Positions 10,662 to 59,464 are shown, numbered from the stretch's first letter. The stretch: DNA of 64,000 bases from an uncultured Actinomycetota bacterium (GCA_963787665.1 CAWBDZ010000011.1:910774-974773); one strand, 5' to 3'. Made by a program: numbers and translations. Notes: generated from the sequence alone by a model not told the origin.

Positions 10662-10674
10662 GCGGTGAGCCCAG

Positions 10675-39322: not shown

Positions 39323-39338
39323 CTCAGCCAGCCGCTGG

Positions 39339-43270: not shown

Positions 43271-43660
43271 TCAGGACGTGGCGGTGCCGTCAGCGATCGC
43301 CGACTTGTCATGACGGGTGCCGAACTGACTGGCCAGGTCGGCATCCCACCACACGCTGAAGAACTGGAAGTCGTCTGTGCCGGCGTTGATGAGCTGATGA
43401 TTGCGACCCGGCGGGAAGTGCACGAGGTCACCAGGCAGGAACGGGGCGCGCTCGCCTTCTGATTCCAGCTCGCCCTCGCCCGACACGGCAAGGAAGATCT
43501 CGTACTCGTGGTGCGCGTGCGGGTCGGTCGCGCCGCCGGGCTCGATGACGCAGAACGCTCCCTCGAACGGCGCATTGAGCGCGGCCCACGGCATCAGCCG
43601 CTGGACCTGCACGCCGTATTCGGACGGCATATTCGCGCGGTCAAGCCGGTGAATTTCCAT
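43271..43660 (-). CDS. stand-alone cupin-domain protein
   Basis: 129 aa. Both cupin motifs are intact: GGATDPHAHHEYEIFLAVSG (G-x5-HxH-x3-E-x6-G) and GDLVHFPPGRNHQLIN (G-x5-PxG-x2-H-x3-N). Confidence 0.85.
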   Translation of the reverse strand: MEIHRLDRANMPSEYGVQVQRLMPWAALNAPFEGAFCVIEPGGATDPHAHHEYEIFLAVSGEGELESEGERAPFLPGDLVHFPPGRNHQLINAGTDDFQFFSVWWDADLASQFGTRHDKSAIADGTATS

Positions 43661-43675: not shown

Positions 43676-45073
43676 CTAGGCGGTGGCGGCCGTCGCGGCC
43701 GCCGGGGCACTGGTTAAGTTCGGGCTGGCCGACTGCGGCATGGCTATCGCCGGGTCGGCCGAGGCGTGGCCGTCGCTGGCGGCGTTGCCGTTGGCGCGGT
43801 CGAGCGCGGTTTCGGCTGCCCGACGTGCGAGGATGTCATCGACTATCTCGCCCGCCCGGACGGCGAGCACGCTTATCAGCGAGTCGGCGATGCCATGCGT
43901 ATCCTCATTGACTCCCTGCAGATAGCAGCCCGCGCGCACCGATGGCGGTGTGATCATCCGGTATGCGCGGCTGACTTCGATCTCCTCGACACCGCACGCA
44001 CTGGCCGCACAGAGAGCGAGTGGCGGCATCCGTGATTCGAAGCCAGTGCCCAGCATGACCAGGTCGCACTGGTGTTCCCGGTCGGTGCCAGTCATCTGGT
44101 CACGGAGGCTGAGTACGACTTCGCCGTGCCGCATGACGGCGTCGGTTACGTCGGCCATGGTGATCATGGACAAGCGTTGCTGGCCGGTAAGCTTCTCCAG
44201 GTACATCTGCCGGAACAACGTGTCGAGCATCTCCGGGGTAACGCCCGCATAGTTGGTCTTGCGCATGGCGTGCAGTACCTGCTTCCGGACGTCAGCAGGT
44301 GCCGCGAAGAATTTATCCGTATAAGACGGGAAATAAAGCTCGTTAGTGAACTTGCTGGTCTGGTAGTAATCCAGGCCTATGGTTCGCATGACCATCGCGC
44401 ACTGCGACTTTGGCATTCGCTGGTGCGTCTCCCAGAGCATCTCAGCGGCACTCTCCGCGGCGCCGACCACGACCACGCGCAACGCCGCTTCTGGGTCGAT
44501 GTCGGCCACCCGGGCCGAGTACTCCGTGCTGTGGATGACGCGCTCAGCCGGCAGCCGGCGGAACGTTTCCGGCACGTGCGCTTCGCGGCCGGCCCCGACC
44601 ACCAACGTCTTGGCACCGATCGTCGACCCGTCAGCCATGGTGACCAGCCAGCCAGTAATCGTGTCGGCGCCAGAATTGACCGCCTCAATCCGCGCGCACT
44701 TGCGGCCGTACTGGATGCTCACCTTCTCCAGCGACTGGGCAACCCAGCTCAGGTATGCCGATATCTCTAACCGGAACGGCAGGAAGCTGGCCATGTTCAC
44801 GAAATCGTGCAGGCGGCCTTCAGAGTGCAGGTAGTTCACGAACGAGAACCTGCTCAGCGGGTTGCGCATCGTCACGAGGTCCTTGATGAAGGAGACCTGA
44901 CTCTGCGTCCAGGGCAGTAGCATGCCGCGTTGCCAGGCGACGCCATCATGCTGCTCGATGATCAGGGTGTGCTTCGCGAGATCGGCAGGAGCCATTTCCT
45001 CGATTGCGACGGCAAATGCCAGATTAGAAGGCCCGGCACCGATCGCTAGGATCTCGACTTGCTGATGATTCAC
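43676..45073 (-). CDS. L-lysine N6- / L-ornithine N5-monooxygenase family flavoprotein (IucD/PvdA/SidA type)
   Basis: 465 aa. EILAIGAGPSNLAFAVAI (FAD), VVVVGAAESAAEM (NADPH), DLVMLGTGF. Lies 15 nt upstream of the cupin gene. Confidence 0.85.
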   Translation of the reverse strand: MNHQQVEILAIGAGPSNLAFAVAIEEMAPADLAKHTLIIEQHDGVAWQRGMLLPWTQSQVSFIKDLVTMRNPLSRFSFVNYLHSEGRLHDFVNMASFLPFRLEISAYLSWVAQSLEKVSIQYGRKCARIEAVNSGADTITGWLVTMADGSTIGAKTLVVGAGREAHVPETFRRLPAERVIHSTEYSARVADIDPEAALRVVVVGAAESAAEMLWETHQRMPKSQCAMVMRTIGLDYYQTSKFTNELYFPSYTDKFFAAPADVRKQVLHAMRKTNYAGVTPEMLDTLFRQMYLEKLTGQQRLSMITMADVTDAVMRHGEVVLSLRDQMTGTDREHQCDLVMLGTGFESRMPPLALCAASACGVEEIEVSRAYRMITPPSVRAGCYLQGVNEDTHGIADSLISVLAVRAGEIVDDILARRAAETALDRANGNAASDGHASADPAIAMPQSASPNLTSAPAAATAATA

Positions 45074-45200: not shown

Positions 45201-46514
45201 TCATGACGACCCGCCGAGGCCGGCCACTGGTTGGTCGGCCGCCCGGATGGTCAGGGCAGCGCTCGCCGCGTCGAGCGCGTGCAGGCAATCGGCGGTTGTC
45301 TGGGCGACGGCCGTTGCCATCGCGATCCGCCCGGACATCGTGCCTTTAGGGGGCGGTGACTTCACATCGCCTGGCTTGGCGAGCACGATCGTCAGGTCGG
45401 CGGCGGGCGGCAGGCCGGCGGTGCCGAACCCGATCTCGCCGATCGTGGTGTCGTCGCTGGCCACGTAGAAGAAGCGCACGGCGCCCACCAGCTGGCGGTC
45501 GGCCTTCAGTTCTGGCCGCTGACCGCATGCCACCGCGGCCGCGGCCAGTCCGGGATCGATGCCGGTTGCGCGCATGCCGAGGTACGGGATCAGGTCACCG
45601 CCCAGCCGGGCGTTCACCTCGATGAGCATCGGCCCGTCGGGCGTGAGCCTAAGCTCGGTATGAGTCATGCCGTCGGTAAAGCCCACCGCCGCATGTGCAT
45701 CTCGCAGCACCCGCAGCAGGTCAGCGTCGGCGAGCAGCGGATCACCGGCATCGACGATGTGGCCAACTTCCTCGAAGTAAGGCGGATAGCCGATCTGTTT
45801 GCGGGCCAGGAACATCGGCAGCACCTCGCCGTCGTAGACCGCGGCGTCCACGCTGACCTCCGGGCCGGTCACGTATCGCTCGATCAGGACGCCCGCGTCA
45901 TAGCGCCAGGACCCCGGTACAGCGTTGTCCCTGACGAACGGGAACCTTGCGGCAAGTTCCTCCGGCCCGTCCGCACGCACGACGCCGAGGCTGCCGCCCA
46001 TCGCCCTGGGCTTGAGCACTACCGGGTAGCCGATCTGATCAGCGGCTGCGAGTGCCGAATCTAGCTCGGCTACCAGGACTGACGTGGGCTGGGGTGCGCC
46101 GGCCGCAGACAGCGCACGCCGGGTCAGGTGCTTATCACGGCACCGCATTACCATGTCGGGGTCGCCGCCGGGCAGACCGAGCGCGGCAGCAACCTTTGCG
46201 CTTTGCAGAATGCGTGCCTCGTCCCAGCTCAGCACGCCGCTGACGGCCTGCGCGGCGGCGAGTCGCAGCGCTGCCGCGCACATCTCATCGGCGCCGATGG
46301 TGTCGGCCATGCCGTCCAGCACGGTCCAGCCATCGACGTAGCCGAGTTCCCAGCTCGGCTCCGCGCCGAGGAACAGGTGCACGCGGTACTGCGAACTGAT
46401 GGATCGCAGCAGGTACTCACGGTAGTTCCGGCCGCCAGTAGAGATCAGTAGCAGTAGCGGGCGGTTGTCGCTCGCTGCGGTGCGCAGACCCGCCGCCTGA
46501 CTCGCCTCGGTCAT
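45201..46514 (-). CDS. ATP-grasp domain protein (L-amino-acid-ligase-like)
   Basis: In-frame ATG 46512-46514 (MTEASQAAG...) overlaps (ATGA) the upstream stop. CRDKHLTRRALSAAG, IGYPVVLKPRAMGGSLGVVRA, VLIERYVTGPEVSVD, MLIEVNARLGGD. Confidence 0.8.
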   Translation of the reverse strand: MTEASQAAGLRTAASDNRPLLLLISTGGRNYREYLLRSISSQYRVHLFLGAEPSWELGYVDGWTVLDGMADTIGADEMCAAALRLAAAQAVSGVLSWDEARILQSAKVAAALGLPGGDPDMVMRCRDKHLTRRALSAAGAPQPTSVLVAELDSALAAADQIGYPVVLKPRAMGGSLGVVRADGPEELAARFPFVRDNAVPGSWRYDAGVLIERYVTGPEVSVDAAVYDGEVLPMFLARKQIGYPPYFEEVGHIVDAGDPLLADADLLRVLRDAHAAVGFTDGMTHTELRLTPDGPMLIEVNARLGGDLIPYLGMRATGIDPGLAAAAVACGQRPELKADRQLVGAVRFFYVASDDTTIGEIGFGTAGLPPAADLTIVLAKPGDVKSPPPKGTMSGRIAMATAVAQTTADCLHALDAASAALTIRAADQPVAGLGGSS

Positions 46515-46855
46515 TGCGCGATCTCCTCGATCCGCGACACGCCAGTGTCCCCATCCAGCCGCTGCCAGTGCTCGACCAGCACGATCCGGCCATCCGGCAG
46601 CATCTCTGGCGTACTCACGCAGCCGCCGGCAATCGTCGTACCGTTGGCCGTCACCATGCAGTAGGCGGCGTCGATGACGCCATCGGGCCTGCAGGTACCG
46701 ACCAGCCGGCCAGCCCGGACCGCCGAGCCGGAGAAGTCCGCCCACACCAGGTCGCCTGCCTGGTGGTACTGACCTACCGATGTCCAGGTCCCGTCCGGGC
46801 CGGGCTGGTCGCCCGCTGGCCGGAACCAGCGTCCGCCATAGCTGATCGGTGACAT
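46511..46855 (-). CDS. small conserved beta-barrel (lipocalin-like) protein; from memory, this family is often annotated as 'N-acetylglutamate synthase'
   Basis: MSPISYGGRWFRPAGDQ...VGQYHQAGDLVWADFSGSAVRAGRLVGTCRPDGVIDAAYCMVTANGTTIAGGCVSTPEMLPDGRIVLVEHWQRLDGD. Pattern recalled from about 110-aa bacterial proteins. Start chosen at ATG 46855 because upstream codons have atypical low GC3. Confidence 0.45.
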   Translation of the reverse strand: MSPISYGGRWFRPAGDQPGPDGTWTSVGQYHQAGDLVWADFSGSAVRAGRLVGTCRPDGVIDAAYCMVTANGTTIAGGCVSTPEMLPDGRIVLVEHWQRLDGDTGVSRIEEIAQ

Positions 46856-46974: not shown

Positions 46975-48345
46975 TCAGAGGCCCAACACCACCGGATCCG
47001 GTTTCCGGCCGGCCAGCGCCGCCAGCGCTGCCGAACTCGTTCCGGCCCCGGCTGCCAGGGCACCAAGTAAGCAACGGACGGCGAGCGCCGAATCGAATCC
47101 GGCCAGCTGGAGCGCGCGCTCGGCTCGTTCGAGCTCGGCGGGCGCTAGCTCTGGCGGTCGGCCCGGTCCGGCCGGCAGCTCGCCGCGAAGCAATGGTCCG
47201 ACGTACTCGCAGAAGGCCAGGTAGGACTCCCGGGTGAAGTCGCTCTCGTACCGGTCCGGACGGTCGAAGGACAAGTAGAGCCGGACGAGCTCGGGATCCT
47301 CGGTGGCCAGGAATTCATTTGCCCACAGCGCATGATTACGGCTGGTGGAGAACTTCTGGCCGTCCAGCAGGTACAGCTCGTTGACAGTTGCCCCGCGCAG
47401 CAGCGGCCTGCTGACTCCGGCGGCGGCAAGAATCGCCGGGTACAAGACCGTGAAGTAGAACGCGTTGTCGATGCCGTTGAAATGCCATACGCCGTCGACA
47501 TCATCGAAGGCCCCGATGCGTGCTGCGAGCGTGTCGGCGTCGGGCCGCAGTGCCTTGGCCGGACCGTATATGTAGCTCAGCCCCAGCTCGGTCGGGAAAT
47601 CCAGGCGCAGGCCGGCCAGGTCCTCGTCGCATTCGATGCCCCAGTTGGTGGGGTAGGCGACCGGATAATCCGGCAGCGGGTTGTCGAGGTAATGCGCCAG
47701 GAAGGCCCGGACCCTAGGCGGCAGGTCGGCCAGTTGCCACTCGGCCACAAGGTTCGCGCGGTAATCCTCGAGCGGCAGCACCGGCACGCGGAGCGTCATC
47801 GGCCGCGGGCTGCCGCCACACCATGCGCAGCTGGGATCGATCAGCAACTCGGATGAGGTGAAAGCGCCGCATGGCTCACATGAAAGGCCGTTGGCGCCGC
47901 TGCCGCAGATAGGACACTTGCCGACGACGTAGGCATGGTGCAAGGTGCGGCCGCAGTCGGCGCACTCGTGCATCGTGACCTCTCGGATCGACAGTGCGCC
48001 GCGGGCCATGAGCTCGGCCAGCATGCCGAGCGCTGCCCGTTCGAACTTCGGATCCTGCGGGTCGAGGAAGACGTCGTAGCCAATGCCCGCGAGCTCGAAC
48101 GCCGTTGCTATCTGGCCGCGGAACTTCGCGACCATCTCGACGGGGTCGACGCCAAGGAATTCCGCCTTGAGGTGCACGAAATTCGGATGGACATCAATGC
48201 CTGCCAATGTGAGCACGCGCTCCCCGCGGGATCTGGCGGCTCGGGCCGCGATGTCGGCCGCCAGATACGGACCTGACAAATGACCGATATGCAGCGGACC
48301 GTTGACTGTAGGCTGCGGGATGACGATTACAGTCACGCCTGTCAC
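46975..48345 (-). CDS. methionyl-tRNA-synthetase-like class I ligase paralog (catalytic domain only)
   Basis: 456 aa. HIGH motif (NGPLHIGHLSG), MetRS-type Zn knuckles (CADCG...CPICG...CEPCG...CAWCG), degenerate KMSKS (KFSTSRN). Too short to carry a full anticodon-binding/C-terminal domain. GTG start preceded by GGGAAGGGAGA. Confidence 0.8.
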   Translation of the reverse strand: MTGVTVIVIPQPTVNGPLHIGHLSGPYLAADIAARAARSRGERVLTLAGIDVHPNFVHLKAEFLGVDPVEMVAKFRGQIATAFELAGIGYDVFLDPQDPKFERAALGMLAELMARGALSIREVTMHECADCGRTLHHAYVVGKCPICGSGANGLSCEPCGAFTSSELLIDPSCAWCGGSPRPMTLRVPVLPLEDYRANLVAEWQLADLPPRVRAFLAHYLDNPLPDYPVAYPTNWGIECDEDLAGLRLDFPTELGLSYIYGPAKALRPDADTLAARIGAFDDVDGVWHFNGIDNAFYFTVLYPAILAAAGVSRPLLRGATVNELYLLDGQKFSTSRNHALWANEFLATEDPELVRLYLSFDRPDRYESDFTRESYLAFCEYVGPLLRGELPAGPGRPPELAPAELERAERALQLAGFDSALAVRCLLGALAAGAGTSSAALAALAGRKPDPVVLGL

Positions 48346-49054
48346 GGTGTCTCCCTTCCCGCTGCCAGGATGGCCACTGCATCCGTCCCGGCGTTGGGCG
48401 CATTAGTCGAGCCTCCATTGGCTCGTGACTTATCCCGGGGAACTAGCAAAATAAGCGCGCTTGCGCCGAACACCAAACGCGCGGGAACGGCCACGGTGGT
48501 CAGACCGTTGAACGTGGGTCACATTCGCTCGGTCAGCATGACAGCCTGTCGGGACGCCTAGCAGCACTCACGTGAATGGCAGAGCCACCACTCCCCTCAG
48601 TCGCACTTGGCGAGCGCGTCGTATTACAAATCGGTGAAGATCGAGTTCGTTTGGGAGTCTACGACGCCATTCGAGTCCTGCCAAGCCCCTGATTAGCAGC
48701 CAATCCTGTCCAGTCGCAGTGGCATCAACGGATGCATTGGTCCGATTAATTTTCTTCAGCGTCTCGTTGCCTCTTGCGGCAACGTCTGTCACAAGAGTTT
48801 GCAGACCATCTTGGCATTGCGGCGAGCAGCGACGGCGGTTAGCCTTCTCGCAGAATGGCTGCAAGGCCGGGCGTCTTGCCGTGGCCACAGCCGGTAGCGA
48901 CGCTGCTGCCCGGAAGGGGTGGTGCAGGCAACCGCCGGAGAACGGGTAGTCAAGAACGTTCGGAATGGGCAGTGACGGAATGCCGCACGGCCTGCCCTGC
49001 ACTATATCCAAGTGCTTTAAGCGCCAGCTCGCCGGAGAAGTCAAGGAGGCCTGG
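48346..49054. promoter_or_regulatory. about 700-bp comparatively AT-rich divergent intergenic region between the two cluster operons
   Basis: No ORF with genome-typical GC3. Visibly lower GC (e.g. ccgattaattttcttcagcg). Flanked by outward-facing starts at 48345 (-) and 49055 (+). Confidence 0.6.
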
Positions 49055-49771
49055 GTGAGTCACGCAGATTCGGCCCGAGACGCTGCTGCCATTCCATTGT
49101 GGAATGACGCCTACGATCAGGCTCACCTGCAGGACCATGAGAATCTGTGGGGGGACCCGCCGGTTCCGTTCGCATTGACGGCGGCGCAGTTGTTCGCCAC
49201 CGGTGCCGCTGCTGTGATTATCGACTTGCCATGCGGTGACGGCCGGAACCTGCCGCCCCTAGCCGACGGCGCACCTATTGTGCTAGCGGGCGACACCTCG
49301 GTCAAGGCGATGGTCATTGCCGAAGGCGTGACGAACCGGGCTGGCATCAGGCACAAGGTGGTCTTCACCAGGACTGACGTCTTCGCCACTGGACTGCTCG
49401 ATGATTCCGTGGATGGCGTCTTCTGCTGGGACCTGCTTGGTCATCTGACCAACGCCGCTGATGCGCTTCGCGAGCTGTACAGGATCACTCGGCCAGGCGG
49501 CTGCATTGTGGCCAACATGTGGACCATGAACGACTGCCAGACTTCCGACCCGAATATCCGGGAAATCGCGCCGAAGGAATATATCGATCATTTCGACTTT
49601 TACTGCAGGTTCTACGATCGAGACGACATTACGGGGCTACTGGCGTCGGTCGGGATGACCGCCGAGTCGGTGGCGGTGTCCGCCTGGCGGGAGCCAGGTC
49701 ACGCGGACTACCGGACGTACGAGCACGATCACGAGAGCCTGGTCTTCGTCATCAGGAAGCCCAGGATCTGA
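49055..49771 (+). CDS. class I SAM-dependent methyltransferase
   Basis: VIIDLPCGDGRN (motif I), DGVFCWDLLGHL, RPGGCIV. GTG 49055 is preceded by AAGGAGG at optimal spacing (the track start 48965 is unlikely). Confidence 0.8.
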   Translation: MSHADSARDAAAIPLWNDAYDQAHLQDHENLWGDPPVPFALTAAQLFATGAAAVIIDLPCGDGRNLPPLADGAPIVLAGDTSVKAMVIAEGVTNRAGIRHKVVFTRTDVFATGLLDDSVDGVFCWDLLGHLTNAADALRELYRITRPGGCIVANMWTMNDCQTSDPNIREIAPKEYIDHFDFYCRFYDRDDITGLLASVGMTAESVAVSAWREPGHADYRTYEHDHESLVFVIRKPRI

Positions 49772-49822: not shown

Positions 49823-50824
49823 GTGGGCGCGCGTGATCTCCGGCCGGCCGATGGTGACGAAGGTTATCGGACACGGCAGTTTGGCGTCGGGATCGGCTAT
49901 GCCCCGGCCCACCACGGCGAACTGCTGCAGGGCATCTTCGATGATGGTGCGGGGCACCTGCGCCGGGCGCTTGTCACCTTGCCGCAGCGGGGGCGGGGTA
50001 GCCGCGCGGTGTTCAGGCCGAGCGGGAATCACTGGGGCGTTGTCGGAACGCCGGAACTTGTGAAGGTGAGGCGCGCGGCGGTACTCGCGCTGCGCGAGTT
50101 CGCCACCCACCCGGCCCCGGTCAAGGGCGGCCAGATCGAGATCATCAGGGACTTCCCGCTGGGCGTGGGGATGGGCTCGTCGACCAGTGACGTCACCGCG
50201 ACGATCCGCGCGGTTGCTGATTTCCACGGTGTCATGCTGTCGCGCGAAGAAGTTGGCCGGCTGGCTGTGCTGGCTGAGGTTGCCTCGGACTCGATCATGA
50301 TCGATGACCGTGTCGTGCTTTTCGCCCACCGCGACGGGCAGGTACTGGAGACGTTCGGTCACCGGCTGCCGTCCATGATCGTCGTTGGTTGCGATACCCA
50401 GCCAGGATCGGTCGTCGACACTCTCGGCCTGCAGCAGGCTGACTACAGCAGCCGGGAAGTGGGAGCTTTTCAGGTCTTGCGTGGTGCGATCCGGCGAGCA
50501 ATCGCGACCGAGGATGTGGCGCTGCTGGGCCGGGTGACGACGGCAAGCGCCCGTATCAACCAGCGATTCCTGGCCAAGCCCGCGCTGGAGACCCTGCTCG
50601 AGCTGAACCTTCGGCTCGGCGGCTGCGGCATCCAGGTCGCGCATAGCGGCACTGTAGCCGGGCTGATCTTCGACTCGAGGCTGCCCGGAATCGAGGCCAC
50701 GGTCGAGCGCTGCGTCACGGGTATCAACGAGATTGGCCTCGCGATGACCGCGGTGATCAGTCCGCAGCCTGCAGCGGGCGGCAGCGCGCCGCCAGTGCCG
50801 GTCACTGCGATGGTGTCGGCGTGA
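49823..50824 (+). CDS. GHMP-family kinase (PduX/L-threonine-kinase-like)
   Basis: 333 aa. N-terminal APAHHGELLQG and GHMP motif II PLGVGMGSSTSDVTA. Confidence 0.7.
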   Translation: MGARDLRPADGDEGYRTRQFGVGIGYAPAHHGELLQGIFDDGAGHLRRALVTLPQRGRGSRAVFRPSGNHWGVVGTPELVKVRRAAVLALREFATHPAPVKGGQIEIIRDFPLGVGMGSSTSDVTATIRAVADFHGVMLSREEVGRLAVLAEVASDSIMIDDRVVLFAHRDGQVLETFGHRLPSMIVVGCDTQPGSVVDTLGLQQADYSSREVGAFQVLRGAIRRAIATEDVALLGRVTTASARINQRFLAKPALETLLELNLRLGGCGIQVAHSGTVAGLIFDSRLPGIEATVERCVTGINEIGLAMTAVISPQPAAGGSAPPVPVTAMVSA

Positions 50825-51924
50825 TGAGCATCAGAACTAGCTACGCCGAAGCCACTGACGCCTATCAGCTGCCGCGTCTGATCAGGTTGACCGCCAATCT
50901 CTATGCCGCCAGCTTCACCTTGATGAAGATGATCCCGGCCCGTTACATCCTGCGCCAGGCCGCAGCTCTCGGGACGCTGGAACCAGGCGCGGTCATCACG
51001 GAGACAACCTCGGGCACCTTCGGGCTCGCACTGGCGATGCAAGCCGTGCATATGGGCCACCCCCTGATCCTGGTCAGCGATCCCGTCATCGACGAGCGGC
51101 TTTACCGCAGGCTGACTGACCTGGGTGCAGTCGTGGACCGGGTGCCCGCCTCGGCGAGTGCGATGGCCGGCGGGTTCCAGGCCGCGCGCCTGCAGCGGCT
51201 TGCCGAGATACGCGCGGAGCACGAGCTCACTTTCTGCCCCGAGCAGTACTCGAATCCGGATAACCCGCGCTCGTACGCCACTGTCGCCGAGCTGTTCCTG
51301 GAATGCCTGGGTCAGGTCGACTGCATGGTGGGCCCGGTCGGATCTGGCGGCTCCATGTGCGGGACGGTGACCGCACTGCGATCCATCATTCCGGAGTGCC
51401 GCGCCATCGGGGTCGATACTCACGGGAGTGTGCTATTCGGACACGCCGACGGCCCGCGTGAACTGCGCGGAATGGGCATGAGCCTGATGCCAGCCAACTT
51501 GGATCACCGGGTCTTCGACAGCGTGCACTGGTGCGCGCCCGGGCCGGCTTATCTGGCCACCCGGCAGTTGCACCGCCAGCACGCGCTGTTCATGGGACCG
51601 TCCAGCGGCGCCGCCTACCTGGTGGCTCTGTGGTGGGCGAACGCCAACCCGGGTGCCGTCACCGTGGTCATGCTGCCCGACGAGGGATACCGCTACCAGG
51701 ACACCGTCTATGACGACGAATGGCTGCGGGCGCACGGACACACTGATCAGCCGCTGCCGGCCGACCCGGTGACCGTCGCCGATCCGGCCCGGCCGGAAGG
51801 CAACTGGACCGAGTACAACTGGGCACGCCGCTCATACGCCCAGGTGCTCGCAGCGCAGGCCGAGCGGTTGGGCGCTCAGATTGCCGACAGCGAACCGGTC
51901 GCGGGCCAGGTGAGCGCGCGTTGA
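50821..51924 (+). CDS. PLP-dependent fold-type II enzyme (cysteine synthase / SbnA-like beta-replacement enzyme)
   Basis: 367 aa. FTLMKMIPA (candidate PLP Lys), ETTSGTFGLALA, GPVGSGGSMCG, GPSSGAAY. Overlaps both neighbours by 4 nt. Confidence 0.75.
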   Translation: MMSIRTSYAEATDAYQLPRLIRLTANLYAASFTLMKMIPARYILRQAAALGTLEPGAVITETTSGTFGLALAMQAVHMGHPLILVSDPVIDERLYRRLTDLGAVVDRVPASASAMAGGFQAARLQRLAEIRAEHELTFCPEQYSNPDNPRSYATVAELFLECLGQVDCMVGPVGSGGSMCGTVTALRSIIPECRAIGVDTHGSVLFGHADGPRELRGMGMSLMPANLDHRVFDSVHWCAPGPAYLATRQLHRQHALFMGPSSGAAYLVALWWANANPGAVTVVMLPDEGYRYQDTVYDDEWLRAHGHTDQPLPADPVTVADPARPEGNWTEYNWARRSYAQVLAAQAERLGAQIADSEPVAGQVSAR

Positions 51925-53420
51925 CGGGGACCGGACGGCTGCTGGGTGAACTCGGGCCGTGGACCCAGCGCGTCGTCTATGGCGAGCTAACTCAGGCCGA
52001 CATCGATGCTGAACTGCCGCTGATGGTGCAGGTCGATCAGGCGCATCTGGTCATGCTCGCGGAGCAGGAGCTTATCCCGGCGGCAGCCGCTGCGGATTTG
52101 CTGCGCTGCATTGACGCGCTAGCGGCGCAGCGGTTCGCACCGCTGCTTCAACGGCCAGCGCCGCGCGGCCTCTATCTCATGTACGAGGGCTACCTCATCG
52201 AGCAACTCGGCGCCGACATCGGCGGCGTGCTGCACTCCGGCCGGTCCCGGAACGATCTGAAGGCAACGATCACGAGCCTGCGACTTCGGGCCTGGCTGCT
52301 GGGTTTCACTGCGCAGGCAGTCCGGCTCGAGGCGGTGCTGCTGTCCAGGGCCCGGGCCTACCGGGCGATCGTGATGCCTGCCTACACCCACTTCCAGGCA
52401 GCGATGCCAGTCACCTATGGCTACTACCTGCTCGGGATAGCTATCGCGCTCGGCCGTGAGATCGACGCGCTGCAATCTGCCGCGGCGGGTCTGCAGGCCA
52501 GTCCGCTCGGCGCGGCGGCTGTGGCCGGCACCGATCTGCCGATCGACGCCGGTCGCACGGCACGGCTGCTCGGATTCTCCGGCCCGCATGGCCACGCGCT
52601 GGATGCCGTGGCGAGCAGGGATGTACCGCTGCGGCTACTCGCCGCTGCCACCGGGGCGGGAATCGTGCTGAGCCGCCTGGCGACCGACCTCCAGCTATGG
52701 AGCACATTTGAATTCGGCCTGATCAGCTTTCCGGACCGGCTAGTCGGCGGCAGTTCTGCGATGCCGCAGAAGCGCAACGCTTTCCTGCTCGAGCATGTCA
52801 AGGCGAAGGTGGGTCACGCTCTTGGTGCCTGGGCCGGCGCTGCGGCGATGATGGCAGCCGCGCCGTTCACGAACTCGATCGAGGTCGGCACCGAAGCGAT
52901 GGCCGGCATCTGGCCCGGCCTGCTAGCCGCAGAGCAGAGCGTGCTGCTTGGTCAGGTGCTCGTGAGCGGCGCCCGGCCCGCTGCGGCTCGCATGATGCAG
53001 CGTGCCCAGACAGGGTTCACCACCGCGACGGCGGTGGCCAACCGCCTGGTCCGCTGCGGCGTCCCCTTCCGCACTGCGCACCACATGGTCGGTGACGCGG
53101 TGCGTCAGGCGGTGGAAGCCGGTTCGACCGAGCTGGCTGACTTCGGCCCGCCAGGCTGGCTGGACCGGATCGAGCTAGCCGATCTTGATTTGCCATCGGT
53201 TGTCCGCGCGCACGTGCACGGCGGCGGTCCGGGCGCGTTCGCTGACTTGTTCAGTAACGCTGTGCAGGCGTGGACGCATCACCATGACTGGCTGAACGCG
53301 TGGCGAGCGAACGACGTCGCGGCGGGAACGATGCTTGCCGCGGCCGTCCAGCAGTTGTCCGGCAGCCTTCTTCGATCGGCTGAGCCTGAGGTCGCCGCTG
53401 ACCGGGAGCGCGCGCGGTGA
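51921..53420 (+). CDS. argininosuccinate-lyase-like (fumarase/aspartase superfamily) lyase
   Basis: 499 aa. HSGRSRNDLKAT, MPAYTHFQAAMPVT, GGSSAMPQKRN signature, and GVPFRTAHHMVGDAV, which closely parallels the E. coli ArgH segment GVPFREAHHIVGEAV. Confidence 0.8.
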   Translation: MTGTGRLLGELGPWTQRVVYGELTQADIDAELPLMVQVDQAHLVMLAEQELIPAAAAADLLRCIDALAAQRFAPLLQRPAPRGLYLMYEGYLIEQLGADIGGVLHSGRSRNDLKATITSLRLRAWLLGFTAQAVRLEAVLLSRARAYRAIVMPAYTHFQAAMPVTYGYYLLGIAIALGREIDALQSAAAGLQASPLGAAAVAGTDLPIDAGRTARLLGFSGPHGHALDAVASRDVPLRLLAAATGAGIVLSRLATDLQLWSTFEFGLISFPDRLVGGSSAMPQKRNAFLLEHVKAKVGHALGAWAGAAAMMAAAPFTNSIEVGTEAMAGIWPGLLAAEQSVLLGQVLVSGARPAAARMMQRAQTGFTTATAVANRLVRCGVPFRTAHHMVGDAVRQAVEAGSTELADFGPPGWLDRIELADLDLPSVVRAHVHGGGPGAFADLFSNAVQAWTHHHDWLNAWRANDVAAGTMLAAAVQQLSGSLLRSAEPEVAADRERAR

Positions 53421-54676
53421 CGTCAGGCTGGTTCGTGCTCGTGGAGAGCAACACCACCGGGTCAGGCAGGCTGTTCTGCGAACGCGCTCGCAAGCTCGGG
53501 CTCGTTCCGGTCATGCTCGCTCGCGATCCGGGCAGGTATCCGTACCTACGCCGGGACGCCATCGAAGGGCGGCTAGCCGACACCGCCGACCCGGATGCGC
53601 TGCTGGCGGCCTGCGCGAAGCTCGGCGGCCGGATCGCTGGGGTCACGAGCAGCTCGGAATACTTCATCGGGATAGCGGCGCAGGTCGCCCGGTCGCTCGG
53701 GCTGCCGCACCCCGACCCGGCCGCCATCGCGTGCTGCCGGGATAAGCAAGCACAGCGAACCCGGTTCCGCCGAGCCGGCCTGCCGTGCCCGGCGTACGAA
53801 GCCGCGAGCACCGCCAAAGATGCCGTCGCCACGGCGCGCCGGATTGGGCTGCCGGTCGTGGTCAAGCCGATAGCCGGATCCGGCTCAGTGGGCGTGCGGC
53901 TTTGTGCGAGCCTGGCCGATGTCGCAGCGGCGGCCGGCCACGTTCTCGGCTCCGATGCTGCCGCGTTAGGCCTTCCGCCGCAGGGATCGGTGCTGGTAGA
54001 GCAATTGCTTGACGGGCCGGAGTATTCGGCCGAGGTGCTCGGTGGCGAACTGGTAGGCATCACCCGGAAGTGGCTGGGACCGTTGCCTTACTTCGTCGAG
54101 ATCGGCCATGACTTTCCGGCACCGCTGCTGCCTGCGGAGCAGACGCTGATCCGGCATGCTGCGCTGGCTGGGCTGCACGCCGTGGGCCTGAACTCTGGCG
54201 CTGCTCACATTGAGCTGCGACGCACTTCGAGCGGCCCGGTCATCGTGGAGATCAATCCGCGGCTGGCCGGAGGCATGATCCCGCGCGCGGTGCAGGAAGC
54301 CACCGGCATCGACATGATCCACCATGTGGTTGCGCAAGCGGCTGGTGTCACCGATCCGCCAGCGCCGACCAGATCCGCAGCGGCTTCGATCCGGTTCCTG
54401 ACCGCGCAAACAACGGGCCGGCTGGCGGCCATCACCGGGATTGAGCTGGCACGGCAGTTGCCCGGGGTCGTCGAGGTGGGCCTCACCTGCGAGATCGGGC
54501 AGCCGGTAGAGGTGCGGCACTCCTTCTCCGACCGTCTCGGATACGTGATCGCGGCGGCAGATTCCGGGCCAGCCGCGGCGCGCGCCGCCGAAGCAGGGCT
54601 GGCCGCATTGGACGCGCAGATCGCGCCGACCGACTCCGGCTACTCCCGCGCGCGGGCGCGGGCGGTGCGACCATGA
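53417..54676 (+). CDS. ATP-grasp domain protein (L-amino-acid-ligase-like)
   Basis: 419 aa. CRDKQAQRTRFRRAG, IGLPVVVKPIAGSGSVGVRL, VLVEQLLDGPEYSAEV, VIVEINPRLAGG. Confidence 0.8.
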   Translation: MTSGWFVLVESNTTGSGRLFCERARKLGLVPVMLARDPGRYPYLRRDAIEGRLADTADPDALLAACAKLGGRIAGVTSSSEYFIGIAAQVARSLGLPHPDPAAIACCRDKQAQRTRFRRAGLPCPAYEAASTAKDAVATARRIGLPVVVKPIAGSGSVGVRLCASLADVAAAAGHVLGSDAAALGLPPQGSVLVEQLLDGPEYSAEVLGGELVGITRKWLGPLPYFVEIGHDFPAPLLPAEQTLIRHAALAGLHAVGLNSGAAHIELRRTSSGPVIVEINPRLAGGMIPRAVQEATGIDMIHHVVAQAAGVTDPPAPTRSAAASIRFLTAQTTGRLAAITGIELARQLPGVVEVGLTCEIGQPVEVRHSFSDRLGYVIAAADSGPAAARAAEAGLAALDAQIAPTDSGYSRARARAVRP

Positions 54677-56577
54677 CGCGGCTCACGACGGCGCCTGTTT
54701 CGGTGGCGATCATCGGCCTGGGCTCGCGCGGGCTCAGCGTGCTCGAGCGGATCGTGACGCTTGCCCGGCTGGGCGGACTGGCGCCGGGCCAGGTCCAGGT
54801 CGAGGTCATCGACCCGGCCTGCACCGGCGCGGGTGTGCATGATCTCAGCCAGCCCGACTATCTCCTGCTCAACACCACTTGCTCGCAGGTTTCGATGTTT
54901 CCCGATTCGTGCACGGTGGGAGCAGACACCGGTTCGGCCGGGCCGAGCCTGCATGCCTGGGTTGCCGAGCGGGGACTCCGGCTGGCAGCAGACGGCTATA
55001 CGGTCGGCCAGACCGGCCGGCCGATCAGGCCGACCGACTTCCTGCCGCGCCGCCTGCTCGGCGAATATCTCAGCTGGTTCTTCGGCCAACTGCGCGCGCA
55101 GGCGGCCGGCCACGTACTGCTGAACATGCACGCAGCGACCGCGGTTGACCTTTCGCCTGCAGCTGACGACAGGCTGTTGGTCAGCTTGTCGGACGGCAGC
55201 TGCGTTCAGGCGAGCCAGGTGTTCCTCACCACCGGTTACACGCCGAACAGCACTGCGCGTGGTCGGTCCGCTCCTCCGCGCCTGATCGCTGAGCCGTACC
55301 CGTTGCCTGAGCGCCTTGCTGGCCTGGCAGCTGGCCAGCCGGTCGCCGTCGCCGGATTCGGCCTGTCGGCGATGGACGTGATGTCGTGCCTGACCGTCGG
55401 CCGTGGTGGTCGATTCGTCAACCGCGACGGCAGCCTTGAATACCTGCCAAGCGGGCACGAGCCCGCGCTGCTGATGTACTCGCGCTCTGGCATACCGTGC
55501 CGGGCCAGGCCGCAGGTTGTCGAGTTCGGGCCGAAGTATGAGCCGCTGGCTTTCACGTCGGCCGGCATCGATGCCGTGCGGGCCCGGCGGCGCGGCCCGC
55601 TCGATTTCGATGCTGACGTGCTGCCCCTGATTCTCGCTGAAATGCGGATCGCCTATCGCCGGTGCCAGGCGCGATGCGCGGGCGGCGACGCCGAGGTGGC
55701 TCTCGACCGAGCGCTCGGCCGGGCAAGTGGCGGTACGGACCTGGCCCGGCTGACGGCCGCGCTCGACGAGATGGACGCGCGGCTAGGGAGATTCGACGCG
55801 GCCGCCACATTAGACGGATCAGCCGGGATGGACCTGGCCGACGCGGCGGCCTATCAGCGCTGGCTGTCGGGCTATGTGTCGGCCGACCTGGCCGAGGGCC
55901 TGTCTGGATTCGCGGGCAGTCCGGTGAAGGCGGCCCTGGACGTGCTGCGGGAGCTGCGCGACACATTCCGGTACGCGGTGGACTTCGGCGGTCTGACGCC
56001 AGCGTCGCTCGACGAGTTCACCAGGCGCACGATACCGGCAGTGAACCGGGCGGTCGTCGGGCCACAATATGAGCGGCATCTTGAGCTCCTCGCGTTGCTA
56101 GCGGCTGGAGTTGCCCGCGTGCCGTTCGGCCCGGCACCTGAGGTAAGGCTGAATCGTGACGCGTGCCGCTGGACGATCCGCGCGACGCGGCTGCGCTCGG
56201 CGTACTCCGCCGAGGTTGACTGGCTCGTTGCAGCCCAGGTCCCGCTGCCGGCGGTTGCCTCATCTGCGAGCCCGCTGCTGGCCTCGCTGCATCGCAAAGG
56301 CTGGATCCGGCCGCACCGGGCGGATAGCACTCTGGTGCGCGGCATCGATATTGACCGCGACCAGCATCCCATTGACGCGGGCGGCGTCCCTGACCACCGG
56401 ATCTGGGTGCTGGGGCCGCTCTGCGAGGGAGCCACTTTCTACAACAACCTGGTCCCATCGCCGAAGATGGCATCGCGGCCGGTCTTCGACGCGCACCGTT
56501 GCGTGAATGCCATGCTCACGGCCAGCCAGTGGCAGCCCGACCGGAAGAGCGACGCGCTCCGCCAGCCCATCGGGTGA
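54673..56577 (+). CDS. FAD/NAD(P)-binding flavoprotein (PF13454-type; possible amine/aspartate N-oxygenase)
   Basis: 634 aa. N-terminal VAIIGLGSRGLSVLERIV dinucleotide fold and a second Rossmann segment VAVAGFGLSAMDV. ATGA overlap with the upstream ATP-grasp gene. Confidence 0.65.
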   Translation: MTRLTTAPVSVAIIGLGSRGLSVLERIVTLARLGGLAPGQVQVEVIDPACTGAGVHDLSQPDYLLLNTTCSQVSMFPDSCTVGADTGSAGPSLHAWVAERGLRLAADGYTVGQTGRPIRPTDFLPRRLLGEYLSWFFGQLRAQAAGHVLLNMHAATAVDLSPAADDRLLVSLSDGSCVQASQVFLTTGYTPNSTARGRSAPPRLIAEPYPLPERLAGLAAGQPVAVAGFGLSAMDVMSCLTVGRGGRFVNRDGSLEYLPSGHEPALLMYSRSGIPCRARPQVVEFGPKYEPLAFTSAGIDAVRARRRGPLDFDADVLPLILAEMRIAYRRCQARCAGGDAEVALDRALGRASGGTDLARLTAALDEMDARLGRFDAAATLDGSAGMDLADAAAYQRWLSGYVSADLAEGLSGFAGSPVKAALDVLRELRDTFRYAVDFGGLTPASLDEFTRRTIPAVNRAVVGPQYERHLELLALLAAGVARVPFGPAPEVRLNRDACRWTIRATRLRSAYSAEVDWLVAAQVPLPAVASSASPLLASLHRKGWIRPHRADSTLVRGIDIDRDQHPIDAGGVPDHRIWVLGPLCEGATFYNNLVPSPKMASRPVFDAHRCVNAMLTASQWQPDRKSDALRQPIG

Positions 56578-56586
56578 TGTCCGGGA

Positions 56587-56648
56587 CTGGCCACTGCCCT
56601 GCTGGCCACTGTCCCTGCTGGCCGCTGTCCCTGCTGGCAGCAGTCCTG
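56587..56648. repeat. 4 x 15-16-bp imperfect tandem repeat CTGGCCACTG(T)CCCTG
   Basis: Units at 56587, 56602, 56618 and 56634, in the gap between the flavoprotein stop (56577) and the HipA-like start (56696). Confidence 0.85.
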
Positions 56649-56695
56649 GCCGGCTGGCACCCGGCGTAAGCTGCGGCCTTGTGCTTCCCCAAGTG

Positions 56696-57517
56696 ATGGC
56701 GACCAGGTATGTGACGCCGCTGCGCGAGGGCGGGTCGCTGCCGGCGGTGATGGAAGCCGACGACCTTGGCACCTACGTGGTGAAGTTCCGCGGGGCTGGT
56801 CAGGGCTTGAAGGCCTTGATCGCGGAGATCATCTGTGCGGCACTGGCGCGAACCTGCGGCCTGCCGGTCCCAGATCTAGTCACGGTTGAGCTGGATCCGG
56901 CGATGGCGCCTGGGGAGCCGGACCAGGAGATCCAGGACCTGCTTCGGGCCAGCGGCGGCCTGAACCTGGGCGTGGACTTCCTGCCTGGTGCGCTGGACTT
57001 CGAGACTGGCGCCGAGACCGTGGCAGCTGGCCTTGCCGGGCAGATCATGTGGTTCGACGCCCTGGTCGGCAACGCTGACCGGTCGTGGCGTAATCCGAAC
57101 ATGCTGCTCTGGCACGGCAGGCTTTACCTGATCGACCACGGCGCGACGCTAACCTTCCAGCACCGGTGGGCCAGCGCGGCATCGGCGGCTGCCCGGCCCT
57201 ACGACGTTTCCGAGCATGCCCTGCTCGGCTGCGGGGCGCTGGTTGCCGACGCCGATGCCAGTCTTGCGCCGCGGCTCACCGAAGCGGCCTTGCGCTCGGC
57301 CGTGCACCAAGTGCCCGACGACTGGCTGACCGGAGAACCGGGCTTTGCCGATGCCGCGGCGCTGCGCAAGGCCTATGTCACGCAGCTGCGAGCGCGGCTA
57401 GCCGCCCGGCCCAGCTGGCTGCCGCCGCTGGCGGCGGCGGCGGAAGCTGGCCTGCGGGGCCCGGGCACCGGCCGGAGCGGCGGACCGGCCCGGCTGACTG
57501 GCGGAGCAGGCCTGTGA
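56696..57517 (+). CDS. HipA-like serine/threonine kinase-fold protein
   Basis: MATRYVTPLREGGSLPAVMEADDLGTYVVKFRGAGQG...FDALVGNADRSWRNPNMLLWHGRLYLIDHGA (kinase catalytic-loop/DxG-like). In-frame ATG 56696 preferred to the track start 56507. Confidence 0.6.
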   Translation: MATRYVTPLREGGSLPAVMEADDLGTYVVKFRGAGQGLKALIAEIICAALARTCGLPVPDLVTVELDPAMAPGEPDQEIQDLLRASGGLNLGVDFLPGALDFETGAETVAAGLAGQIMWFDALVGNADRSWRNPNMLLWHGRLYLIDHGATLTFQHRWASAASAAARPYDVSEHALLGCGALVADADASLAPRLTEAALRSAVHQVPDDWLTGEPGFADAAALRKAYVTQLRARLAARPSWLPPLAAAAEAGLRGPGTGRSGGPARLTGGAGL

Positions 57518-57906
57518 CCGGCCAGCATCCATTCGAATACGCGGTCCTGCGCGTTGTGCCGCGGGTCGACCGCGGCGAGGCGATGAACGCCGGAATACTC
57601 CTTTACTGTCGGCCGCTGCGCTACCTGAAGGCATGGATCGAGCTGGATACCGACCGTCTTCAGGCGCTCGACCCAGCCGCGGACGTCGACGGCATCGAGC
57701 GGGCGCTGGCCGGCATCGTCGCGGTCTGCTCGCAGGATCCGGCGGCTGGCCAGGCTGGGCTGCAGGACATCGGGCGCAGGTTCGGCTGGCTCACGGCGCC
57801 GCGCAGCACGGTGGTGCAACCGGGGCCCGTTCACACAGGGCTGACCAGCGACCCCGACGCCGCCGCAGAGAGCCTGTTGCGCGCGCTGGTACGGCGGCCT
57901 GGCTGA
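57514..57906 (+). CDS. DUF3037-like protein
   Basis: GTG 57514 overlaps (GTGA) the upstream stop. FEYAVLRVVPRVDRGEAMNAGILLYC resembles the DUF3037 N-terminal signature as I recall it. Confidence 0.5.
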   Translation: MTGQHPFEYAVLRVVPRVDRGEAMNAGILLYCRPLRYLKAWIELDTDRLQALDPAADVDGIERALAGIVAVCSQDPAAGQAGLQDIGRRFGWLTAPRSTVVQPGPVHTGLTSDPDAAAESLLRALVRRPG

Positions 57907-58111
57907 ACGGGACGCTAACCACCGCCTACCGAAGTCCGCAAGATGGGCGGCGACCTCGCAGTACAGCACCGCCCCATGGGCCAGGACCGAGGGCCGGCTC
58001 CGCGCGCGCATCGCTAAGCTTGGACAACGTAACGGCCCTGGCAGTCAGCGAGGTCAGCTCACTCGCTGACGGCTTTCCCCCGCCGGGGTGGGTGGAGGGG
58101 AGCAGGCTGCG

Positions 58112-59464
58112 ATGCAGGAAACGAGCGCGCCGGACAGAGGGCAGCCGGTAGCCAGGGTGCGCGGCGGCGGCGATCGCGAGCCACTGAAGGTGGCACTGCT
58201 CGGATGCGGAGTCGTCGGGTCGCAGGTGTACCGGCTGCTGACCGAGCAATCGGCCGACCTGAAGGCCAGAGCTGGCGCGCCGCTGGAAATCGTAGGCGTG
58301 GCAGTTCGGGATCTTGACGGGGCCCGTGCCGTGCCAGTGGCGCCCGGGTTGCTAACTACCGACGGCCTAGAGCTGGTAACCAGGCCGGACGTCGACATCG
58401 TGATCGAGCTGATTGGCGGCATCGAGCCCGCCAGGACGCTGCTGCTGGCGGCGCTCAGCGCGGGTAAGTCGGTCGTCACCGCCAACAAGGCGCTGGTTGC
58501 GTCGGATCGCGCCGTGCTGCACAAGACGGCGAGCCAGGCGGGCGCCGACCTGTACTACGAGGGCGCGGTGGCGGGGGCGATACCGCTGTTGCGCCCGCTA
58601 CGCGAGTCGCTGGCGGGCGACGAGGTCAAGCGGGTGCTTGGCATCGTCAACGGCACGACGAACTTCATTCTCGACAAGATGGATACATCCGGCGCGGACT
58701 TCAGCACCGCGCTGGCTGAGGCTCAAGCGCTGGGCTATGCCGAGGCTGACCCCACCGCGGACGTCGCTGGTTTCGATGCAGCGTCCAAGGCGGCCATCCT
58801 GGCCAGCATCGCGTTCCACACCGAGGTCACCGCCGACGACGTGTACAGGGAGGGCATCCTGTCGGTCACCGCGGCCGATATCGCCAGCGCGAGGGCCCTG
58901 GGCTGCGTGGTCAAGCTGCTGGCCATCTGTGAGCGGGCCAACGGCGGCATCTCGGCCAGAGTGCACCCGGCCATGATCCCGCGTACGCATCCGCTCGCGG
59001 CCGTGCGCGAGGCCTACAACGCAGTCTTTATCGAGGCGGAGTCGGCTGGCAGGCTTATGTTCTACGGGGCTGGGGCAGGCGGGCAGCCGACCGCCAGCGC
59101 TGTCCTCGGCGACATCGTCGCGATCGCCAGGAACCTGCTGGCCGGGCTGCGCGGTCCCGACTCCTCCACCTACGCGCAGCTGCCGCTGGTTCCGATCGGT
59201 GACGCCCGCACCAGCTACTACGTGCAGCTGGACGTGGCCGACCGGCCGGGCGTGCTGGCGCCGGTCGCGGATGCGTTCGCCCAGCAGGGCGTGTCGATAA
59301 AGGCGGTCAGGCAGGAAGGCCGGGGCGAGGACGCGAACCTCATCATCATGACGCACGTGGCCAGGGAGGCTGCGCTGGCCAAGACCGTGGCATTGCTCGG
59401 CGCGATGGAGGCGGTGCGGAACGTTGACAGCGTGATGCGCGTCGAGGCGCTGGAGGGCGAGTGA
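58112..59464 (+). CDS. hom: homoserine dehydrogenase
   Basis: [18 protein letters not shown] fold, [26 protein letters not shown], and a C-terminal ACT domain. ATG 58112 follows GGAGGGGAG. Confidence 0.9.

Follow-up and report, generated by a model that had tools for sequence, protein, structure and literature searches.

In Burkholderia thailandensis E264, the proteins DabA, DabB and DabC make the (2S,3R)-2,3-diaminobutyrate required for a C4-methyl monobactam (Li et al., iScience 2024, PMC10906522). DabA is an L-threonine kinase carrying the motif IV of PduX and BluE, and DabB is a CysK-like pyridoxal phosphate (PLP) enzyme that converts O-phospho-threonine, or alternatively O-phosphoserine, into an aminoacrylate-type intermediate, to which it then adds L-aspartate but not L-glutamate (PMC10906522). 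DabC combines an N-terminal domain matching ATP-grasp proteins with a C-terminal argininosuccinate-lyase domain, and fumarate leaves to give 2,3-diaminobutyrate (Dab); in other Dab operons the two halves, DabC-N and DabC-C, exist as separate proteins (PMC10906522). Homologous sets are the DabABC proteins of friulimicin, PacQST of pacidamycin, the napsamycin and mureidomycin genes, and LvdC-E of a lavendomycin-like cluster, where a triad of kinase, lyase and cysteine synthase has been assigned to 2,3-diaminobutyrate. Here we analyzed a gene pair encoding a GHMP kinase and a fold-type II PLP enzyme (49823-51924) in a stretch of 64,000 nucleotides of high-GC actinomycete DNA, hereafter the window, from an uncultured Actinomycetota bacterium (GCA_963787665.1 CAWBDZ010000011.1:910774-974773). 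The pair is a further member of the described DabA/DabB kind and not new chemistry, and from its sequence the region 49823-54676 is probably a dab operon with a split dabC, in the order dabA, dabB, dabC-C (lyase) and dabC-N (ATP-grasp).

The first gene (49823-50824, plus strand) encodes a DabA-like protein of 333 aa matched by both GHMP domains of Pfam, GHMP_kinases_N (E 1.7e-12) and GHMP_kinases_C. The GTG at 49823 is the sole in-frame start 5′ of the motif HHGELLQG (residues 30-37, with GELLQG at 32-37). Motif II reads PLGVGMGSSTSDVTAT (residues 112-127, with PLGVGMGSS at 112-120) and motif III AHSGT (residues 273-277). GELLQG is common to the window kinase and the kinases of the dab-type operons of Streptomyces canus, Mesorhizobium japonicum and Paraburkholderia phymatum, and is missing from the ThrB protein of the window; motifs II (PLGVGMGSS) and III (AHSGT) are also kept across the dab-type kinases. 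Homologues at 70-83% identity bear the Joint Genome Institute (JGI) name "protein involved in propanediol utilization", which is that of the PduX COG (COG4542). We predict from these motifs that the window kinase is of the PduX/COG4542 type and acts on L-threonine. Like the PduX and BluE L-threonine kinases of cobalamin biosynthesis, it has a GHMP fold with an additional GELxQG motif at the N-terminus, and O-phospho-L-threonine is its predicted product; the PduX/BluE-type motif IV was judged by comparing the window kinase with the dab-type kinases. It differs from PduX and BluE in its partner, which is not a CobD/CobC threonine-phosphate decarboxylase, and the similarity is too low for curated models to make the call. 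Neither CobD/CobC nor cobalamin genes were found among the open reading frames (ORFs) scanned, which covered 38-58 kb of the window.

The second gene (50821-51924, plus strand, 367 aa) encodes the DabB-like fold-type II enzyme, predicted to catalyze a beta-replacement between O-phospho-threonine and L-aspartate. It matches Pfam PALP (E 3.7e-31). The candidate Schiff-base lysine is K36, within LMK, which aligns with the PLP-lysine region of SbnA, CBS and CysK, and the enzyme carries the loops TSGTFG (63-68; TSGNTG in CysK), GSGGS (174-178, the glycine/phosphate loop) and SSG (261-263). Its best NCBIfam match was the SbnA family TIGR03945, at 198.7 bits still below the cutoff of 349.95. Scores against the CysK (125.9 bits, cutoff 350.95), CysM (89.7, cutoff 394.2), cysKM (131.6, cutoff 344.15) and CBS (133, cutoff 510) models were lower again. 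The best matches in the PDB reached 110-114 bits, with CBS, SbnA and CysK about equally distant, and the structures of CmnB and DcsD (3X43) ranked under these at about 84 bits (83.6 for DcsD). Public data contain more than 1400 homologues of the protein, and the best 120 of them are 71-89% identical; the closest relative among species-representative genomes is a Streptosporangiaceae metagenome-assembled genome (MAG) with a PLP protein 89% identical, and the copies of Streptomyces, Kitasatospora and Actinoplanes are 58-64% identical. Since the enzyme fails all curated cutoffs yet has this many relatives, its sequence places it in a separate, well-populated clade nearest SbnA, and not among the housekeeping cysteine synthases.

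These results bear out what a sequence-only reading of the locus had described: a kinase with HHGELLQG and GHMP motif II, which we found at residues 30-37 and 112-127 together with both GHMP domains; a following gene that overlaps it by 4 nt and carries fold-type II PLP motifs, confirmed by the PALP match with K36, TSGTFG and GSGGS; and a CysK/SbnA-like enzyme, which the sub-cutoff CysK, CysM and CBS scores set apart from housekeeping CysK/CysM. The kinase/PLP junction reads gcGTGAtg, so that the GTG start overlaps the TGA stop by 4 nt; an alternative ATG one codon on would overlap the kinase stop by 1 nt. Further 4-nt start/stop overlaps follow at 51921 (TTGA), 53417 (GTGA) and 54673 (ATGA). 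By these junctions the pair is part of a five-gene translationally coupled string, and the four consecutive overlaps point to co-translation of the module. This arrangement is far beyond chance; the PLP protein has more than 1400 homologues, and the gene order is kept in dozens of genomes.

Of the two genes that follow the pair, the first (51921-53420, plus strand) encodes a DabC-C-like protein of the argininosuccinate-lyase family (Pfam Lyase_1 and ASL_C2), predicted to release fumarate from N-(1-amino-1-carboxy-2-propyl)aspartate (ACPAA), and the second (53417-54676, plus strand) a DabC-N-like ATP-grasp protein (Pfam ATP-grasp_4 and LAL_C2). Both matched NF002563, a single NCBIfam fusion model of 890 residues: the lyase at model positions 410-885 (419.9 bits; argH gave 270 bits, slightly under its cutoff) and the ATP-grasp protein at positions 3-396 (369.3 bits). 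They fit the C- and N-terminal halves of this model, which indicates that the two are one protein in other organisms. Such a fusion occurs on the plasmid pMLa of M. japonicum (L082, 11878-16718), where a kinase, a PLP enzyme and a fused ATP-grasp-lyase are encoded together; the window proteins are 30% (kinase), 45% (PLP enzyme), 43% (lyase, against the C-terminal half) and 42% (ATP-grasp, against the N-terminal half) identical to them. The catalytic loop of the lyase (SS-loop), GGSSAMPQKRN, is intact.

From homology and gene order, the following pathway can be proposed. The GHMP kinase would phosphorylate L-threonine to O-phospho-L-threonine; the PLP enzyme would then expel phosphate to give a PLP-bound aminocrotonate, at C3 of which the alpha-amine of L-aspartate would add to yield ACPAA; and the argininosuccinate-lyase-like protein would eliminate fumarate, leaving 2,3-diaminobutyrate. 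Aspartate would in this way donate ammonia without leaving a trace of its own skeleton, a role it also has in the biosynthesis of arginine and purines. The DabC-N-like ATP-grasp protein is conserved and looks catalytically intact, and no pathway step is assigned to it. The product probably has the (2S,3R) configuration because a threonine aldolase is absent. With less confidence, the diamino acid may be regarded as a building block for a cluster that works free of non-ribosomal peptide synthetases (NRPS), makes a hydrazine and joins its pieces with ATP-grasp ligases. Compared with the dabABC operon of B. thailandensis, the window has the same four catalytic units, in the order kinase, PLP enzyme and DabC, within a tight operon. 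It differs in two respects: the lyase gene stands before the ATP-grasp gene, whereas in the fused DabC the ATP-grasp domain comes first, and the operon has no NRPS attached and shares its cluster with a CreE-like N-oxygenase, a methyltransferase, additional ATP-grasp ligases and a hydrazine synthetase.

The conservation of the module was further evaluated by fetching 80 genomic loci that encode relatives of the PLP enzyme and mapping the window proteins onto them. A lyase and an ATP-grasp protein accompany the PLP gene in nearly all of the 80 loci, and the kinase in most. The module ranges from MAGs of Streptosporangiaceae, Jatrophihabitans, Pseudonocardiales and Micromonosporaceae to Streptomyces, Kitasatospora, Actinoplanes, Nocardia and others, the cluster contexts being of at least three different kinds, and the remaining genes of the window cluster are limited to the closest 36 loci. 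About 45 of the 80 loci have no nearby hydrazine genes and still keep the lyase and the ATP-grasp protein, usually with the kinase. When loci with and without hydrazine/CreE genes were compared, 136 positions of the PLP enzyme, 150 of the lyase and 89 of the ATP-grasp protein were conserved in both, that is, held the same residue at 90% or more in both groups of loci. The sole consistently group-specific position in the three proteins was M220 of the PLP enzyme, in the GxG loop, which is N in the other group. Because the conserved residues are alike with and without hydrazine genes, the module most likely does the same job everywhere, namely the supply of a vicinal diamino acid with aspartate as nitrogen donor.

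These comparisons bear directly on the nucleophile of the PLP enzyme. The sequence-only reading had proposed that a nitrogen nucleophile enters an O-phospho-amino acid by beta-replacement, with SbnA and DcsD as known precedents, a hydrazine or another N-nucleophile from the minus-strand operon as the attacking group and an ATP-grasp, by analogy with DcsG, forming a hydrazide or a ring. The outline of this proposal is supported, and for the nucleophile the sequence points elsewhere: aspartate is the most likely one, since the next gene encodes a DabC-C-like lyase that would remove the aspartate skeleton as fumarate. DabA and DabB (PMC10906522) are closer precedents than SbnA and DcsD, and the adjacent ATP-grasp protein is the DabC-N partner, the other half of the NF002563 fusion, and not a ring-closing enzyme of the DcsG type. 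We found no evidence in the sequence for a hydrazine nucleophile; the lyase next door is unchanged and the 136 PLP positions are common to both groups of loci.

In its fullest form, the hydrazine proposal holds that the PLP enzyme adds a hydrazine from the minus operon (for example hydrazinoacetate) to give a beta-hydrazino amino acid, which an ATP-grasp enzyme then cyclises or acylates. A complete split hydrazine-synthetase set does lie divergently upstream, about 25 related loci have it together with the Dab genes, the M220/N difference falls in the GxG loop of the PLP enzyme, and CysK-family enzymes are promiscuous towards nucleophiles, DcsD being one example. However, recruitment of the enzyme to hydrazine chemistry predicts changed active-site loops in the PLP enzyme and a lost or diverged lyase in the hydrazine loci, and neither was seen. 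The lyase fits only an aspartate adduct, yet it is retained, with its 150 common positions and no group-specific one; the adjacent ATP-grasp protein is a DabC-N orthologue; and the PLP gene is accompanied by the lyase and the ATP-grasp protein, usually also by the kinase, in the approximately 45 genomes that have no hydrazine genes nearby. We therefore consider a hydrazine nucleophile very improbable.

The precedents named above differ from the window in their partners as well. With the L-2,3-diaminopropionate pathways of SbnA/SbnB (staphyloferrin B), CmnB/CmnK and SulH/SulG, the window shares a fold-type II PLP enzyme and a beta-replacement in which the amine of one amino acid displaces the phosphate of an O-phospho-amino acid. 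It is distinguished from the SbnA/SbnB pathway by the sub-cutoff SbnA score, by the presence of a dedicated kinase, and by a predicted donor that is aspartate instead of glutamate. In the SbnA/SbnB pathway the donor skeleton is oxidised and hydrolysed to 2-oxoglutarate, whereas in the window the lyase would remove it as fumarate; an SbnB-type nicotinamide adenine dinucleotide (NAD)-dependent dehydrogenase of the ornithine-cyclodeaminase fold was not found among the ORFs scanned between 38 and 58 kb. The likeness to the DcsD/DcsG system of D-cycloserine consists in a CysK-family enzyme using a nitrogen/oxygen nucleophile and an ATP-grasp enzyme in one cluster. However, the substrate of DcsD is O-acetylserine and not a phospho-ester, the window enzyme is more distant from DcsD than from CBS, SbnA and CysK, and neither a serine acetyltransferase nor hydroxyurea-forming genes, the partners of DcsD/DcsG, are present in the cluster.

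The fifth gene of the coupled string (54673-56577, plus strand), whose start overlaps the ATP-grasp gene by 4 nt, encodes a flavin N-oxygenase of the CreE/FzmM type (634 aa, Pfam NAD_binding_9). The match to the L-aspartate N-hydroxylase 8CP2 spans the full length of the protein (E 2e-65). The catalytic, dicarboxylate-binding arginine cluster is kept, and three positions are altered: N413 corresponds to D430, R577 to S596 and R276 to K288. All 24 of the CreE-like orthologues compared have D or E at the N413 position and S at that of R577, and the R276 position is variable. In the characterised enzyme, the mutation N413E abolishes aspartate hydroxylation. These substitutions suggest that the substrate of the CreE-like enzyme may be other than free aspartate. 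The locus resembles the CreE/CreD aspartate-nitrosuccinate pathway in having a CreE-type flavoenzyme that matches from end to end and closes the plus operon; it differs in that no CreD partner accompanies the enzyme and in the acidic residue at the N413 position. Among the ORFs scanned, the cluster has no CreD-type nitrosuccinate lyase, and DabC-C is its sole lyase. A recruitment of DabC-C itself to the CreD-type role of nitrosuccinate lyase was considered as well, and was rejected because no group-specific substitution is seen in it.

The CreE-like enzyme might instead act within the Dab pathway, by N-oxygenating ACPAA or the diamino acid so that the lyase or nitrone hydrolysis yields a 3-hydroxyamino (or more oxidised) aminobutyrate for N-N bond formation. 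Several observations fit this idea: the CreE-like gene is coupled by 4 nt to the Dab module, stays with it in a locus (L032) that has no hydrazine synthetase within 10 kb, and lies directly 3′ of the PLP gene in another (L030); the arginine cluster is kept, although N413 is replaced by D/E in the 24 orthologues, a change of the kind that in N413E kills aspartate hydroxylation, and R577 by S; and the cluster lacks a CreD-type nitrosuccinate lyase. Nevertheless, the proposal is wholly inferential. Whether or not a locus carries the CreE-like gene makes no group-specific difference to its lyase, and an N-monooxygenase to serve the hydrazine synthetase is already encoded in the cluster. In addition, the enzyme may be a true nitrite-supplying aspartate N-hydroxylase whose altered residues simply reflect drift within its lineage. 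Such a diversion of the pathway appears unlikely.

Several points weigh against the assignment of the module to 2,3-diaminobutyrate synthesis. The link to the Dab proteins rests on the architecture of the operon, on the description in PMC10906522 and on an uncharacterised proteobacterial operon, that of M. japonicum pMLa, which has an identical architecture and served as surrogate for the characterised proteins of B. thailandensis, friulimicin and pacidamycin. In the reference study, DabA and DabC themselves were never assayed in vitro (PMC10906522). The window cluster has no NRPS, unlike all described users of Dab. The remodelled substrate chamber of the CreE-like enzyme could mean a diversion of the pathway at the ACPAA stage. 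One related locus, in a Micromonosporaceae MAG (L030, MAG23, 7816-10800), has the kinase, the PLP enzyme and the CreE-like gene, and neither the lyase nor the DabC-N ATP-grasp protein at that position; either the lyase is not strictly obligatory there or the contig is misassembled. It is the only related locus with a CreE-like gene directly 3′ of the PLP gene, and this arrangement may reflect a real deletion, a relocation or an assembly artefact. Finally, since DabB also takes O-phosphoserine (PMC10906522), the product could be 2,3-diaminopropionate.

The main doubt within the Dab assignment concerns this last variant, in which the module makes L-2,3-diaminopropionate (L-Dap) from O-phosphoserine and aspartate and the kinase either takes serine as its substrate or can be dispensed with. 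The DabB and DabC proteins of B. thailandensis turned O-phosphoserine and aspartate into L-Dap both in vitro and in vivo (PMC10906522), and substrate specificity is not readable from the sequence. However, O-phosphoserine is a primary metabolite, which makes a PduX-type kinase needless, and a survey of clusters found the L-threonine kinase consistently and exclusively in those producing Dab (friulimicin, pacidamycin, napsamycin and mureidomycin; PMC10906522). The kinase goes together with the PLP gene in most of the loci compared here. The serine route is accordingly improbable, and threonine is retained as the predicted substrate.

The least probable explanation is that the two genes are housekeeping paralogues, a cysteine synthase and a kinase of the homoserine/threonine pathway. 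The locus is located 3.4 kb upstream of hom-thrC-thrB, and the JGI auto-annotation names the homologues of the PLP enzyme "cysteine synthase". However, the CysK, CysM and CBS scores are roughly a third or less of the respective cutoffs, the kinase is only 24% identical to the window ThrB and has another N-terminal motif, and the adjacency to hom-thrC-thrB is limited to the five closest relatives. These data leave this explanation almost no weight. The housekeeping hom-thrC-thrB genes themselves (58088-61553, plus strand) stand directly downstream of the cluster, an adjacency observed only in the closest relatives (L001-L005); a threonine supply beside a threonine-consuming pathway is perhaps a coincidence.

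Other loci that encode relatives of the pair showed variations of the module. In S. canus DSM 40017 (L048, 10001-19002) and about 40 other Streptomyces, Kitasatospora and Actinoplanes loci, a compact and conserved Dab cluster comprises the PLP enzyme, the lyase, an adenylation-thiolation-thioesterase (A-T-TE) protein of about 1340 aa, the GHMP kinase, a dioxygenase of the TauD family and an ABC transporter. The A-T-TE domains were recognised when one of the Streptomyces loci was scanned with Pfam, and an ATP-grasp domain is apparently fused at the N-terminus of the protein. Regular expressions for NRPS motifs, applied to the loci, were too strict and too noisy in high-GC DNA, and no strong conclusion was drawn from them. 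On the plasmid pBPHY02 of P. phymatum (L081, 10996-13644), the kinase lies beside a PLP protein annotated as 541 aa, possibly a fusion, in a region where the annotation is incomplete. Operons of the dabABC type occur on symbiosis plasmids of rhizobia and Paraburkholderia, and many more matches were found on plasmids of Sinorhizobium, Rhizobium and Bradyrhizobium. In L007 (13789-14532) and ten other loci, an AlaX-like protein of about 247 aa (tRNA_SAD, editing-domain type) is encoded between the DabC-N ATP-grasp and CreE-like genes; the window does not have it.

The genes around the module were then assigned, and counts of context genes refer to the 36 closest loci or to 37 sequences compared. 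The plus operon is headed by an S-adenosylmethionine-dependent methyltransferase (48965-49771, Pfam Methyltransf_11/25); 26 of the 36 closest loci carry it together with the Dab genes. Divergently from it, the minus strand between 39184 and 48345 carries what its sequence identifies as a complete split hydrazine-synthetase set, interleaved with two ATP-grasp ligases and a 504-aa protein. The gene at 46975-48345 encodes a standalone O-aminoacyl-hydroxylamine synthetase of the PyrN-C type (Pfam tRNA-synt_1g), the MetRS-like half of the hydrazine synthetase; its best PDB match was PyrN-C (9L8V) at 207 bits, as against 146 bits for true MetRS. The glutamate-binding residues R390 and R425 of PyrN are replaced by S and F, respectively, and this indicates that the activated amino acid is not glutamate and that the enzyme is not a glutamate-type synthetase. 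The other half is a standalone cupin (43271-43660, Pfam Cupin_2, E 2e-16), predicted to form the N-N bond, which adjoins a flavin N-monooxygenase of the lysine/ornithine type (43676-45073, Pfam Lys_Orn_oxgnase, E 3e-85). Split systems of PyrN-C plus cupin are documented in the literature. A FAD oxidoreductase of the DAO family (39184-40395, Pfam DAO) is by its position a candidate hydrazine-releasing oxidase with a role like that of Spb39/Tri27, and DAO-type orthologues adjoin the MetRS-like gene in another cluster variant. In its gene content, with the N-monooxygenase, the PyrN-C-like and cupin proteins and the DAO-type oxidase, the minus operon therefore resembles the described hydrazine synthetases (Spb38-40, Tri26-28, PyrM/PyrN and split PyrN-C plus cupin); it departs from the glutamate-type synthetase at R390 and R425.

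The two interleaved ligases, both on the minus strand, are of the L-amino-acid-ligase type. Ligase A (41849-43219, Pfam ATP-grasp_4 and LAL_C2) travels with the cassette of cupin and N-monooxygenase. Ligase B (45201-46745, Pfam ATP-grasp_4) has orthologues of 57-87% identity in most of the closest loci, and probably starts in reality near 46514. The 5′ part of this mechanically called ORF hides a small conserved ORF of about 114 aa (46511-46855, minus strand), whose stop codon overlaps the start of ligase B at 46514 inferred from the GC content of third codon positions (GC3); this family was present in 13 of the 37 sequences, always just upstream of ligase B, and had no Pfam match. The conserved 504-aa protein (40395-41909, minus strand) had no match in Pfam, NCBIfam or the PDB, and orthologues were present in 11 of the 37 sequences. 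An MFS transporter (38060-39322, plus strand, Pfam MFS_1), likewise in 11 of 37, is the likely left edge of the cluster.

The related loci fall into two variants, which have different cassettes of cupin and N-monooxygenase; a DAO-type oxidase occurs in both, and the MetRS-like gene, the methyltransferase, the Dab module and the CreE-like gene form their common core. The divergent intergenic region of the window between the MetRS-like and methyltransferase genes (48346-48964, about 620 bp) is unusually long. In the other variant a cupin gene fills this place, and a search of the 620-bp gap for a cupin remnant found none. A hidden N-terminal cupin in the MetRS-like gene, raised by a Longispora ORF of 630 aa, was rejected, since its first 165 residues proved to be an out-of-frame artefact; the cupin of the Longispora-type variant is a separate upstream gene.

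The pair extends the route from threonine to 2,3-diaminobutyrate to many, mostly uncultured, Actinomycetota, and shows the module to be portable between very different cluster types. It also corrects annotation: the labels "cysteine synthase", "propanediol utilization protein" and "argininosuccinate lyase" here mark a Dab module, and recognition of the genes as such predicts a vicinal-diamine building block in the product. By itself the pair is of low to moderate significance, being composed of ordinary genes within an uncharacterised but widely conserved hydrazine-making cluster. The larger interest resides in the surrounding cluster, which combines the Dab module with a hydrazine synthetase, a CreE-like N-oxygenase, three ATP-grasp ligases and a methyltransferase. 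Our literature search turned up neither a cluster in which a hydrazine synthetase, a CreE-like enzyme and Dab genes occur together nor a described product of such a combination. It is conceivable, though doubtful, that the Dab module feeds no NRPS and belongs to a widely conserved cluster of soil Actinomycetota in which a re-purposed CreE-type enzyme, acidic at the N413 position, N-oxygenates the diamino acid or ACPAA, and ATP-grasp ligases join the result with a hydrazine to give an undescribed, N-N-rich small peptide or heterocycle. The cluster is kept at 60-90% protein identity across several actinomycete families, and it is also found in cultured strains with genome assemblies, such as Longispora sp. 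K20-0274, whose complete genome makes the cluster experimentally tractable; NPDC051575 is another cultured carrier.

Scans of the whole window for tRNA genes and Rfam families found nothing. Between the cluster and hom-thrC-thrB, the region 56507-57906 (plus strand) encodes a kinase of the HipA_2 family followed by a DUF3037 protein; this pair occurs only in the four or five closest relatives and hence is probably outside the biosynthetic cluster.

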